Source of the DNA: a virus
Taxonomy: Duplodnaviria; Heunggongvirae; Uroviricota; Caudoviricetes
IMG/VR virus record: IMGVR_UViG_2667527582_000007
Strand: one strand, 5' to 3'
DNA: 64,000 bases
How positions within the stretch are numbered: position 1 is the stretch's first letter; each line of letters starts with the position of its first letter. Of this stretch, positions 3,443 through 59,642 are shown in pieces. A program made the position numbers and the translations under genes. The notes under the pieces are model-generated. The model worked only from the letters and a program-made list of their open reading frames with translations. It made no database searches and was not told the origin of the DNA.

Positions 3443-3935
3443 AACTGCGTGTTACGTTCGCCCTGGACTGTTGCGATCGTGAAGCCATAGACTGGGCCGC
3501 AAGCACGGGAGGTTACGATAAAGCGACAGTGCAGGATGTCATGTTAGGAGCGATAGAAAAACGCTTTGGCGATAAAGTACCGGAACAGTCCATCCAGTGG
3601 CTGACAGATAACGGTTCAGCGTATAGAGCGCATGAAACATGGCAGTTCGCCAGAGAGTTGAATCTGGAGCCCTGCACAACGGCAATCAGCAGTCCTCAGA
3701 GTAATGGAATGGCAGAAAGGTTCGTGAAAACGATGAAGGAAGACTACATCGCGTTCATGCCGAAACCGAATGTAAGAACGGCATTGCATAATCTTGCAGT
3801 GGCGATCGATCATTACAATGAAAACCATCCGCACAGTGCGTTGGGTTATCGCTCTCCGCGAGAATATCGACGTCAGCGGGTAACGTTAACTTAAGATACA
3901 CCCCCTGTCTGGAAATAAGGGGGCAAGAACAATGA
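3443..3935 (+). mobile_element. IS3-family (IS2-group) transposase OrfB C-terminal half plus right terminus
   Basis: ORF 3421..3894 resembles IS2 InsD C-terminus (DDE region, ...[14 protein letters not shown]); IS2-like end tgtctggaaataagggggcaa. Confidence 0.65.
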
Positions 3936-4688
3936 TCAGATTCCCTGGTGAGTAAGAATTTTACTTTCTGAACTCCTCTGAGAGTATTGACTTGGAGAAA
4001 CACCAAAATAACGTCTAAATACATAAGTAAAGTATGAGACACTGGCATAACCACAGACCTTAGCTACTTTACTAATAGGATAACAACGAGTGCTGAGTAA
4101 ATATTCAGCCATTTGCATCCTTTCATCAAGTATGATCTTACTGAATGATACCCCCTCTTCTTTCAATTTCCTCTTTAGTAAACTTTCGCTGAGATATAAT
4201 CTTGATGATATATCCTTAAGACGCCATGGTGCAGATAAATCCGTATGAATAATCGTTTTAACTTTAGCCTCTGTGCTTTTCAAACATTCAAACAGAAATA
4301 CTCCAAATTGTTTTTCAGAAGAAAATGCAGAGAGACATGTAAAAGCAATAGACTCATCAAAAATTTCTATGTATTCAGCACAGTGATTAGCCCAACTAAT
4401 TAATCCTTTAATTAAACTGAAGTCAGCAAAGTTTATTTTTAAATAAGATGGATATTCCCTACAATCAGAAATATCCCTTAAGTTATTAGCTTTCAAATAG
4501 CGACTAATAAACTCAGCGCCAAAATCCGCCACTATCACTCTTTCAGGATATGTCAGGAAAAAATCTCTAGAGCTAGAGTCGACAAGTACAGATGAACCTC
4601 TCTCCAGAAACACACTCTCTTTTCCGAAATAAACATCAAAGGACTCCAAAATCAATATAACTGAACATGTAGTTGCCATATCATCCAC
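3936..4688 (-). CDS. AraC/XylS-family transcriptional regulator (AppY/GadX-like), AT-rich
   Basis: 250-aa ORF with C-terminal AraC HTH (…GYASVSYFTYVFRRYFGVSPSQY); ~570-bp AT-rich upstream region. Confidence 0.7.
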   Translation of the reverse strand: MDDMATTCSVILILESFDVYFGKESVFLERGSSVLVDSSSRDFFLTYPERVIVADFGAEFISRYLKANNLRDISDCREYPSYLKINFADFSLIKGLISWANHCAEYIEIFDESIAFTCLSAFSSEKQFGVFLFECLKSTEAKVKTIIHTDLSAPWRLKDISSRLYLSESLLKRKLKEEGVSFSKIILDERMQMAEYLLSTRCYPISKVAKVCGYASVSYFTYVFRRYFGVSPSQYSQRSSESKILTHQGI

Positions 4689-5514: not shown

Positions 5515-5574
5515 GGTGATGCTGCCAACTTACTGATTTAGTGTATGATGGTGTTTTTGAGGTGCTCCAGTGGC
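5515..5574 (+). mobile_element. IS1 left terminus
   Basis: ggtgatgctgccaacttactgatttagtgtatgatggtgtttttgaggtgctccagtggc. Confidence 0.9.
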
Positions 5575-13193: not shown

Positions 13194-13261
13194 ACCCCCG
13201 GTAGAGTTGCCCCTACTCCGGTTTTCGAGACCGGTCCGTTCAGCCGCTCCGGCATCTCTCC
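13194..13261 (-). tRNA. serU: tRNA-Ser (CGA), 5' 68 nt; 3' end lost in N run
   Basis: Reverse complement ggagagatgccggagcggctgaacggaccggtctcgaaaaccggagtaggggcaactctaccgggggt. Confidence 0.85.
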
Positions 13262-17241: not shown

Positions 17242-17469
17242 NNNNNNNNNNCGTGGTGCGTAACGGTAAAAGTACTGCCGGACATCAGCGTTATCTCTGC
17301 TCTCACTGCCGTAAAACATGGCAGCTACAGTTCACTTACACCGCCTCTCAGCCCGGTACACACCAGAAAATTATTGATATGGCCATGAATGGCGTCGGAT
17401 GTCGTGCCAGTGCACGCATTATGGGCGTTGGCCTCAACACGGTTTTACGTCACTTAAAAAACTCAGGCC
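17242..17469 (+). mobile_element. insA: IS1 InsA fragment
   Basis: ...[71 protein letters not shown]. Confidence 0.9.
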
Positions 17470-17724: not shown

Positions 17725-17734
17725 NNNNNNNNNN

Positions 17735-18279
17735 CGTGTATCAAGACTTGAAAACGCTACCAGTGCTACACAGATACCTAACGACAACAGGAAAAAAAAC
17801 CATACCCAAAAGGTAGTGAATCGTTTGCTTTTAACTGGGGATTGTTCAGGTGGCGTTGCGGTGTTTTGAATGTTAAGACTGTGGGAGGGAGAATCTGTGG
17901 CAGGAACCGCCTCTGGTATAGGGGGAGGCGAAGATAGCATTATTTCCTCTCCCTCTTCTTCGCTGTACCAGATAACCGGCACCATTAATTTATAGCCGCG
18001 CTTTGGTACAGTAGCGATATAGACAGGACTATCTTCATCATTATCTTTTAATGACTTACGTAGTTCTGAGATACTCTGCGTCACAACGTGATTGGTGACA
18101 ATACTTCTCTTCCAGACATTATCGATAAGTTCATCCCTGCTAAGTACTTCGCCACTGTGTTGAGCAAAGAAAACCAGAAGATCGATTAATCTCGGCTCAA
18201 GGGTAAGTTGACGCCCATTGCGGCTAATTTGGTTTATGGACGGAGTAACAAGCCATTCGCCAACGCGAACTACAGGTTG
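17735..18279 (-). pseudogene. cadC: cadC 5' portion, interrupted at codon 2-3 by IS1
   Basis: Minus strand reads QPVVRVGEWLVTPSINQISRNGRQLTLEPRLIDLLVFF...TTFWVWFFFLL; the start codon is replaced by the IS1 terminus at 18280. Confidence 0.7.
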
Positions 18280-18340
18280 GGTGATGCTGCCAACTTACTG
18301 ATTTAGTGTATGATGGTGTTTTTGAGGTGCTCCAGTGGCT
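18280..18340 (+). mobile_element. IS1 left terminus abutting cadC
   Basis: ggtgatgctgccaacttactgatttagtgtatgatggtg... Confidence 0.9.
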
Positions 18341-18350
18341 NNNNNNNNNN

Positions 18351-30013: not shown

Positions 30014-30282
30014 NNNNNNNNNNNNNNNNNNNNNNNNNNNNNNNNNNNNNNNNNNNNNNNNNNNNNNNNNNNNNNNNNNNNNNNNNNNNNNNNNNNNNNN
30101 NNNNNNNNNNNNNNNNNNNNNNNNNNNNNNNNNNNNNNNNNNNNNNNNNNNNNNNNNNNNNNNNNNNNNNNNNNNNNNNNNNNNNNNNNNNNNNNNNNNN
30201 NNNNNNNNNNNNNNNNNNNNNNNNNNNNNNNNNNNNNNNNNNNNNNNNNNNNNNNNNNNNNNNNNNNNNNNNNNNNNNNNNN
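30014..30282. other. Assembly gap (269 N)
   Basis: Run of N. Confidence 1.
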
Positions 30283-43164: not shown

Positions 43165-43205
43165 CCAGATAATAGTGTTGCAAATAAAACAGATTTTTTA
43201 AACAT
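43165..43205 (-). CDS. rclB: RclB (YkgI) N-terminus, downstream of rclA
   Basis: Minus strand MFKKSVLFATLLSG... after a hairpin tcagacgccagaacaaatattctggcgtctga. Confidence 0.5.
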
Positions 43206-43313
43206 ATAAAATACCATCAATGAAGTGATTAAGAAGTTATAGAGTAACAGAGAATTAATAAGATTCTTTTCTCTGAGACGCCAGAATATTTGTTCTGGCG
43301 TCTGATTTTGAGT

Positions 43314-44639
43314 TTATTTGACTAATGAAAATAGATCATTGAGTGATTCGCTCATCGACGGATGAGTAAATATCTGATCGCGTAATATGCTATAAGGCAG
43401 CCCGGCATCCATCACCATTTTCACTATATTGATCATCTCGTGGGAGTCAACACACAGCAGTGATGCCCCTAATATACGTTGGGTTTTATTATCAACAATC
43501 GCTTTTAATACCCCACGGGTATCGTTCATCACTCTGGCGCGCGGAATTGCAGCTACAGGCAATGTCACCACCTGAATATCAGCACCACTCTCTCTGGCTT
43601 GTTCTTCTGTCATACCAACCCTGGACAGGGGCGGTGTCATAAATACGGAATAAGGCACATTTTTCCGATCATCAGTACTACGTTTGCCTTCACCCAGTAA
43701 CTCATCACGTACAATGCGGTAATCATCCAGTGATATGTAAGTAAATTGCAGCCCGCCGGTAACATCTCCCATCGCCCAAATATTGTCTGCGGTGGTATGT
43801 AATCGCTTGTCAACGACAATTGCCCCGCGCTCGTTTACTGCGATACCGGCATTTTCTGGATGTAACGAAGCGGTAGCCGGTTGACGACCGGAAGCTATTA
43901 ACAGTGCATCCACCGCCAGTTGGGCGTGCTCGCTATGCACTTGCACTTGATTTTCATGGTGACTGATTCGCTCCACATGGGCATTGAGGATAATATCGAC
44001 GCCCTGATCGCGTAAAATCGTCGCGATATTATCAGCAATATCCCGATCTTCCCGAGGCAAAAACAGCGAAGCTGACTCTAAAATGGTTACTTTGCTGCCA
44101 AAATTAGCGAACATAGAGGCGAACTCAACGCCAATATATCCGCCGCCCAAAATACCTAAATGCCCAGGCAATTCTTTTAGATTAAGTAATCCGGTGCTGT
44201 CATATACACCAGGTGTGGTGGTAATTCCAGGAATTGGCGGAACCACGGCTTGTGCACCGGTATTAATAAAAATTTTCTCGCCATGAATCTCCAGATTTCC
44301 CTCAGGCCGATGAACACGCAGGCTATGATTATTGATAAACTCCGCCTGGCCGTCGATCACGTCGATATTGGGCATATCCGCAAGATTATGAAAATTCTTA
44401 TTACGTAAAAAATTAACCACTTCATTTTTACGCTGTATGGCACGGACAAAATCTGTGTGCTGCTGTGCGTCATGAACCAATGTTTTGGTTGGGATACAGC
44501 CGATATTAATACAGGTCCCGCCATACATTGCATTTGATTGTTCGATGAGAGCCACACGCCAACCTGCTTTTGCCAGCGTGACGGCTAATGTTTTTCCAGC
44601 CTTGCCAAAACCAATAATAACTGCCTGATATTTATTCAT
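43314..44639 (-). CDS. rclA: RclA (YkgC) pyridine nucleotide-disulfide oxidoreductase
   Basis: 441-aa ORF MNKYQAVIIGFGKAGKTLAVTLAKAGWRVALIEQS...GGTCINIGCIPTK... Confidence 0.75.
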   Translation of the reverse strand: MNKYQAVIIGFGKAGKTLAVTLAKAGWRVALIEQSNAMYGGTCINIGCIPTKTLVHDAQQHTDFVRAIQRKNEVVNFLRNKNFHNLADMPNIDVIDGQAEFINNHSLRVHRPEGNLEIHGEKIFINTGAQAVVPPIPGITTTPGVYDSTGLLNLKELPGHLGILGGGYIGVEFASMFANFGSKVTILESASLFLPREDRDIADNIATILRDQGVDIILNAHVERISHHENQVQVHSEHAQLAVDALLIASGRQPATASLHPENAGIAVNERGAIVVDKRLHTTADNIWAMGDVTGGLQFTYISLDDYRIVRDELLGEGKRSTDDRKNVPYSVFMTPPLSRVGMTEEQARESGADIQVVTLPVAAIPRARVMNDTRGVLKAIVDNKTQRILGASLLCVDSHEMINIVKMVMDAGLPYSILRDQIFTHPSMSESLNDLFSLVK

Positions 44640-44694
44640 GATGATTTCCTGTCGAAACGCGTTCATTTGACATTATGACTATAGGACGCAAAAG

Positions 44695-44763
44695 GTGACG
44701 CTGCCAACTTACTGATTTAGTGTATGATGGTGTTTTTGAGGTGCTCCAGTGGCTTCTGTTTCT
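44695..44763 (+). mobile_element. IS1 left terminus, 55 bp upstream of the rclA start codon
   Basis: ggtgacgctgccaacttactgatttagtgtatgatggtgtttttgaggtgctccagtggcttctgtttct. Confidence 0.85.
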
Positions 44764-59154: not shown

Positions 59155-59403
59155 GCGACATCCGACGCCATTCATGGCCATATCAATGATTTTCTGGTGC
59201 GTACCGGGCTGAGAGGCGGTGTAAGTGAACTGTAGTTGCCATGTTTTACGGCAATGAGAGCAGAGATAGCGCTGATGTCCGGCAGTGCTTTTGCCGTTAC
59301 GCACCACGCCTTCAGTAGCGGAGCAGGAAGGACATCTGATGGAAATGGAAGCCACGCAAGCACCTTAAAATCACCATCATACACTAAATCAGTAAGTTGG
59401 CAG
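59155..59403 (-). mobile_element. insA: IS1 5' portion (InsA and left terminus), variant sequence
   Basis: Minus strand [67 protein letters not shown]; terminus ...ggtaatgctgccaacttactgatttagtg. Confidence 0.85.
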
Positions 59404-59642
59404 CATTACCCCCTTTCCCTGTTGGAGATATTCCGATATTCACCTATTTATACCAATACCTCCATTCTTCATTAAGGGCTAAGGAGCGGTTTGCTTGAGC
59501 TAGTAGTAACGTCCGTTCCTGGCACAAAGCGGACAGTGATCACCGTTCTTACGACTACTTTCTGACTTCCTTCGTGACTTGCCCTAAGCATGTTGTAATG
59601 CGATACTTGTAATGACATTTGTAATTACAAGAGGTGTAAGAC

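Follow-up and report, generated by a model that had tools for sequence, protein, structure and literature searches.

CadC, a membrane-bound one-component activator of the ToxR type, switches on the lysine decarboxylase operon cadBA. In Shigella and enteroinvasive Escherichia coli (EIEC), shutting down cadaverine synthesis is a classic pathoadaptation, as a first-pass annotation of this DNA had pointed out for the cad pathway and as the literature bears out (PMC4156367, PMC5723341, PMC10732612, PMC3739510). In the accounts of Casalino et al. 2003 given in PMC4156367 and PMC5723341, cadC is the preferred target for this silencing in EIEC, and EIEC strain 6.81 (O115) carries IS1 in cadC. Plasmid-borne cadC restores cadaverine in cadC-defective EIEC where cadBA is intact (PMC4156367, PMC5723341). 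In Shigella spp., a cad “black hole” and erosion of the cad locus are attributed to Maurelli 1998 and Day 2001 where these are cited in PMC10732612 and PMC4229854, and to Yang 2005 as cited in PMC3739510. Among the lesions cited for reference Shigella genomes, cadA is deleted in Sf301 and Sb227, frameshifted in Sd197, and hit by an insertion sequence (IS) in Ss046.

The locus described here lies in a 64-kb stretch of DNA, hereafter the window, and resembles that of EIEC 6.81 in the IS1 family of the element, in the cadC target, and in the expected loss of cadBA induction and cadaverine. The likeness is one of element and gene, and strain 6.81 also has a cadB frameshift. With the eroded cad loci of Shigella it would share a lysine decarboxylase pathway lost via deletion, frameshift, or IS insertion, whereas the reference Shigella lesions cited above hit cadA and the lesion seen in the window concerns only the start of cadC.

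The window is composed of 96 short contigs (57 to 3,751 bp) separated by spacers of 10 N; one gap of 269 N lies at positions 30014 to 30282. Several divergent versions of lambdoid genes for tail, head, and host specificity make up most of it, together with Rhs and porin fragments and IS1 pieces, and it looks like the repeat-rich remainder of a short-read assembly; contigs that adjoin each other in such assembly leftovers are not genomic neighbors. Positions 17735 to 18340 coincide with a single contig of 606 bp, which has runs of N on both sides (17725 to 17734 and 18341 to 18350), so that the sequence beyond them is uninformative on the cadC locus.

Elements of the IS1 family are about 768 bp long and carry the insA/insB' transposase genes with a programmed frameshift. 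They prefer AT-rich targets, of which they duplicate 9 bp (sometimes 8 bp), and they promote deletions beginning precisely at the element's end. The minus strand of the contig opens, from 18340 to 18280, with 61 bp that match the insA-proximal (left, IRL) end of IS1 at 100% identity. This feature (18280 to 18340, read on the plus strand) comprises the terminal inverted repeat (GGTGATGCTGCCAACTTACTGAT...), present at the element's end as in members of IS1, and the leader up to approximately insA codon 2, where the contig ends. It is identical in 61/61 positions to positions 708 to 768 of the IS1 of E. coli HL15 (L001 4001-4061), the transposase coding sequence of which begins 55 bp from that left end. 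The IS1 stretch stops at the terminal base of the element: the minus strand reads ...GGCAGCATCACC, corresponding to plus-strand ggtgatgctgcc... at 18280.

Immediately beyond this base, the minus strand from 18279 to 17735 is cadC nucleotides (nt) 7 to 551 (codons 3 to 184), with 545/545 positions identical to HL15 cadC by local BLAST. The junction reads GGCAGCATCACC followed directly by CAACCTGTAG, in place of the ...TTCTATTATGCAACAACCTGTAGTT... of an uninterrupted cadC 5' end, and translation through it gives TLNQ, a stop, and VGSIT running into QPVVRVGEWLVTPSINQ (QPVV...). The first-pass annotation had proposed that the ATG-CAA start is replaced by the IS1 end ggtgatgctgccaactta at 18280 and that the minus-strand frame runs from QPVVRVGEWLVTPSINQ, and both statements hold. 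The IS1 terminus adjoins cadC between codons 2 and 3, in line with the proposed interruption at the second or third codon, and it does so inside one contig and not across a spacer. Exact matches of 61 bp and 545 bp on the two sides are far beyond chance. The element on the contig reads rightwards, away from cadC, in a divergent arrangement in which its left end faces the gene.

The cadC part of the contig matches the CadC equivalog profile NF007540 of NCBIfam (E = 6.3e-82, 276 bits, profile positions 3 to 189), with a score under the 400-bit full-length cutoff because only 181 of 512 residues are present. The Pfam domain Trans_reg_C (PF00486) is complete (E = 7e-20, profile positions 1 to 77 of 77) at fragment residues 22 to 98. 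The fragment spans the winged-helix DNA-binding domain, the linker, and the transmembrane segment, within which it ends together with the contig; the fragment stops at residue 184, and neither the periplasmic pH/lysine-sensing domain (CadC_C1, PF18500) nor an intact full-length open reading frame (ORF) is present. The end of the reading frame at nt 551 simply reflects the end of the contig. Analysis of the contig ends in the window found no consistent k-mer overlap. The cadC piece is a gene remnant and not a functional member of the CadC family. A 41-amino-acid ORF antisense to cadC is kept in the fragment (17870 to 17995, plus strand), at the place where PGAP annotates laoB in the cadC of strain CD09; laoB is the gene of an L-arginine responsive protein (PMC5810103).

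Expression of the remnant from the IS1 side meets several obstacles. Five codons short of the junction, the IS1 end contains an in-frame TAA (18295 to 18297, minus strand), which precludes a fusion translated from IS1 into cadC. Frame analysis, with numbering checked against intact CadC, retrieved no ATG, GTG, or TTG after the junction before the GTG of residue V68 (18082 to 18084, minus strand), which is the first in-frame canonical start codon left in the ORF list and the translation and is followed by the ATGs of M101 and M116. Translation from V68 would omit most of the DNA-binding domain. The sole promoter-like site in the IS1 end (18287 to 18314, plus strand) points into IS1, and no such site facing cadC was found there. 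Given the TAA, the lack of a start before V68, and the lack of a cadC-facing promoter, the DNA-binding domain cannot be made, and the fragment is for this reason a pseudogene whatever lies past either contig end. The sequence itself shows that no functional CadC can be made from this fragment.

The lesion is best explained as an IS1-mediated inactivation of cadC, and direct insertion at nt 7 to 15 is the most likely, and on balance probable, route. In such an event, IS1 would have transposed directly into the 9-bp target CAACCTGTA (cadC nt 7 to 15; 18271 to 18279, minus strand), a site predicted from the target duplication of IS1 that would sit at the downstream edge of an AT-rich region recurrently targeted by IS1 in E. 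coli. The left end of the element is joined to cadC nt 7 in the divergent orientation, and the remaining coding sequence is separated from the promoter, the ribosome-binding site, and the ATG of the gene. From the role of CadC and the complementation data in EIEC, the expected outcome would be that acid and lysine no longer induce cadBA and that cadaverine is no longer produced.

A simple insertion predicts a reciprocal junction in which ...TTCTATTATGCAACAACCTGTA is joined to GGTAATGACTCCAACTTATTGAT with the 9-bp repeat CAACCTGTA, that is, ...ATGCAACAACCTGTA joined to the right end of IS1 (GGTAATGACTCC...) with the 9-bp duplication. Neither this junction nor the duplication was found in the 64-kb window, where the two contigs with the opposite IS1 end have unrelated flanks. 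The rest of cadC and cadBA, which the first-pass annotation had suggested looking for elsewhere in the assembly, are absent from the window as judged by BLAST of the whole HL15 cad region, which retrieved no cadC upstream DNA, no cadC past nt 551, no cadB, and no cadA. Moreover, no 14-mer from the DNA upstream of cadC or from its nt 1 to 15 occurs in the window, and BLAST found no second cadC sequence in it. The earlier description of cadC as interrupted by IS1 thus stands in part: an IS1 end lies at cadC and the start is lost, but the other half of cadC is not found beyond IS1 in the window. With the far half absent and the opposite IS1 ends flanked by unrelated DNA, a deletion or rearrangement at the IS1 end is equally compatible with these observations.

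Such a two-step origin or rearrangement is the chief alternative, though less probable than direct insertion. An IS1 already resident upstream would have promoted an adjacent deletion of the promoter region and the first 6 nt of cadC, or recombination between IS1 copies would have inverted or deleted a segment; the cadC 5' end would then be lost or far away, and not 768 bp upstream, with cadC equally dead. That IS1 promotes deletions starting at its end is established knowledge, and suitable resident copies exist. In 72 of 5,426 complete E. coli genomes, a copy of IS1 lies no more than about 800 bp from the start of cadC, in 31 of them in the same orientation as in the window (probe combining 300 bp from the left end of IS1 with cadC nt 7 to 306) and in 41 in the opposite one (mirror-image probe). 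In the 31 genomes, where the orientation is exactly that of the window copy, IS1 occupies at least 15 different positions, 75 to 302 bp (and approximately 719 bp) before the ATG. Two of them, HL15 (IS1 at L001 3294-4061, upstream of cadC at 4231) and SF10, have a cadC that is 100% identical to the window fragment. The cad region of Shigella is also reported to be heavily rearranged (PMC5723341, PMC3739510). The absence of cadC upstream sequence from the window points the same way, but the window covers no more than 64 kb of the assembly, and the missing piece therefore weighs little.

Elsewhere, IS1 has inserted directly within the first 20 nt of cadC, which speaks against the two-step origin. 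In SRR33870834 (L020), the right end of IS1 adjoins cadC nt 19. As in the window, IS1 lies in the first 20 nt of the cadC ORF, the start codon is removed, and the called product of L020 starts at V68, as one from the window would. Unlike in the window, the element sits 12 bp deeper in the gene and faces the other way, and this difference in site and IS1 orientation marks an independent event. In L020, cadB and cadA are intact downstream, whereas the window carries no sequence of either gene.

Two further explanations survive less well. Capture of an IS1-flanked cadC piece by a plasmid or composite element, with an intact cadC elsewhere in the genome, is improbable. It would fit the short cadC contig with its abrupt end at nt 551, as well as another contig of the same window (43165 to 44763) in which rclA and an IS1 end give a one-piece match of 99.7 to 99.8% to pig-derived E. 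coli plasmids, in a comparison that did not separate chromosomal rclA from IS1 matches. The source may thus carry a plasmid of the pig E. coli type or an IS1-mobilized rclA segment. However, the junction was not found in PLSDB plasmids, where the cadC portion alone matches only very large or mislabelled records, and no second cadC is present in the window. Finally, an assembly chimera of IS1-end and cadC reads, which the extreme fragmentation (96 contigs in 64 kb, some below 100 bp) might suggest, is very unlikely, since IS1 stops exactly at its terminal nucleotide as in true transposition products, a boundary that a random chimera would ignore, and three further contigs in the window end in like manner 60 to 71 bp into the same IS1 end, among them the corA-ysgD-IS1 contig (36961 to 38560), which is found whole in many complete E. 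coli genomes (one-piece match, 99.9 to 100%), showing that the assembler does reproduce true IS1 junctions. The corA-ysgD-IS1 junction is an old, widely inherited IS1 site and serves as a positive control for the IS1-ended contigs here.

Internal IS1 fragments at 17252 to 17469 and 59155 to 59410 are only about 91 to 92% identical to the IS1 of HL15, and so the source holds at least two diverged IS1 types. The contig at 3443 to 5574 carries a remnant of IS2 TnpB and a YdeO-like regulator of the AraC family; it is 100% identical to phylogroup-B1-type strains (99.9% to IAI1), and with its IS1 end at 5515 to 5574 it has no one-piece match in any complete E. coli genome.

The junction itself was not found in the collections searched. 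A 54-bp junction-centered probe had no full-length match in the 5,426 complete RefSeq E. coli genomes, a set from which Shigella chromosomes are absent, and with the 606-bp and 600-bp queries every match of IS1 plus cadC in complete E. coli was a two-piece join. Scans for an exact junction 43-mer retrieved nothing from GTDB species representatives and nothing from JGI metagenome contigs. At the protein level, the 32-amino-acid ORF crossing the junction is not on record by exact lookup. A search with the CadC fragment retrieved many truncated CadC products, none of them diagnostic of this junction, and one with the C-terminal 396 residues of CadC retrieved no representative of the expected truncated lengths. 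Exact lookups of two truncated products (P0233 and P0232) led only to other lesions among the 24 places with the longest contigs for each, and the allele may also exist in shorter public contigs. Because the DNA collections searched contain no Shigella chromosomes, the allele may still be common in Shigella.

Compared with the IS1 copies near cadC in the 72 genomes, the window copy shares the element and the neighborhood, as in HL15 and ATCC 8739, and it shares with the 31 a left end that faces cadC. The 41 genomes with the opposite orientation include ATCC 8739 and ST131 strains, and the closest copy in them lies 43 bp before the ATG. In most of the 72, IS1 lies 43 to 302 bp (in a few approximately 719 bp) before the ATG and the cadC ORF is intact, whereas the window copy removes the ATG and codon 2; in a few (CD09, NR3838, Evo1, CP137705.1, and AH04), IS1 is inside cadC. 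The region upstream of cadC has a GC content of 23 to 38%, in agreement with the preference of IS1 for AT-rich targets. Within this IS1 cluster, the window allele is the one in which the element by chance extends into the first codons.

Lesions of other types also fall in the 5' part of the gene. Products starting at V68, M101, and M116, the expected calls for a 5'-disrupted cadC, are all present in public assemblies. Apparent IS10 ends occur at approximately nt 141 of cadC in two samples (L021 and L022), and apparent IS2 ends occur at nt 254/255 and 343 in several genomes (L025 and L027 to L029), with 17 further places similar to L029; both elements were named from their end sequences and are presumed to be IS10 and IS2. 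In two public loci (L016 and L018), the codon for W11 is TGA or TAG. Other truncated CadC products arise from a frameshift in a T8 run or from fusion to an IS1 right end after about codon 88. In most of loci L013 to L022 where cadB and cadA both lie within the DNA examined, these genes are intact downstream. Independent IS1, IS2-like, IS10-like, and nonsense lesions are thus present within the first 350 nt of cadC in public assemblies, and cadC is a frequent mutational target in E. coli at large. A broader reading can be offered tentatively, in which the cadC 5' end and the AT-rich DNA upstream would be a general hot spot for IS1, and apparently for IS2 and IS10, in strains of all lifestyles, with recurrent silencing or rewiring of cadC beyond Shigella and EIEC and with the window as a non-invasive example.

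The first-pass annotation had taken the lesion to point to a Shigella-like source. Ordinary E. coli often carry IS1 near cadC, so that by itself the lesion says little in favor of such an origin, and nothing in the 64-kb window ties the source to the Shigella/EIEC pathotype. Primer sites of ipaH are absent at up to 3 mismatches within the window, which is part of the assembly. No invasion plasmid (pINV-like) is the top match for window positions 1 to 25000, which match lambdoid phage-plasmids instead. The unique contigs of the window are 99.9 to 100% identical to E. coli of the phylogroup A/B1 type, and its IS inventory consists of IS1, one IS2 remnant common to B1 strains such as IAI1, and an apparent IS605-family (IS609-like) transposase fragment. 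NCBIfam and Pfam scans of the uncharacterized contigs retrieved the IS2 remnant, the YdeO-like regulator, porin fragments, and phage proteins, and nothing Shigella-specific.

Two features of the window leave room for a Shigella or EIEC source. The bcsE'-bcsF-bcsG-ldr contig (25098 to 28848), which starts inside bcsE without repeat sequence, has a best match of 99.6% among the 5,426 complete E. coli genomes, below that of the other unique contigs. The contig at 13194 to 16708 carries mtfA, a tRNA, cbl, nac, and tRNA-Asn, and the order mtfA-tRNA-cbl-nac is present in no complete E. coli genome, in which at most 71% of the contig is found in one place. K-12 presumably has further genes between mtfA and cbl, and the arrangement suggests that recombination between tRNA-Asn genes deleted the genes lying between mtfA and cbl in K-12. 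As lineage markers, BcsG was too conserved to help and YcdU turned out to be a core gene.

The inactivation of cadC by IS1 is a real but ordinary event, of an already known kind, in a well-studied gene. The lesion would predict a strain that is lysine decarboxylase negative or non-inducible, a phenotype that bears on biochemical identification and on typing schemes in which the cad genes separate Shigella and EIEC from E. coli. The wider count across E. coli may be more useful than the single lesion, as the 72 of 5,426 genomes and the independent early lesions of cadC caution against taking a cadC lesion as evidence of a Shigella-like pathogen. If the general hot spot is true, commensal and livestock strains would gain from losing CadC or at least tolerate it, and a disrupted cadC would be an unreliable sign of invasiveness.
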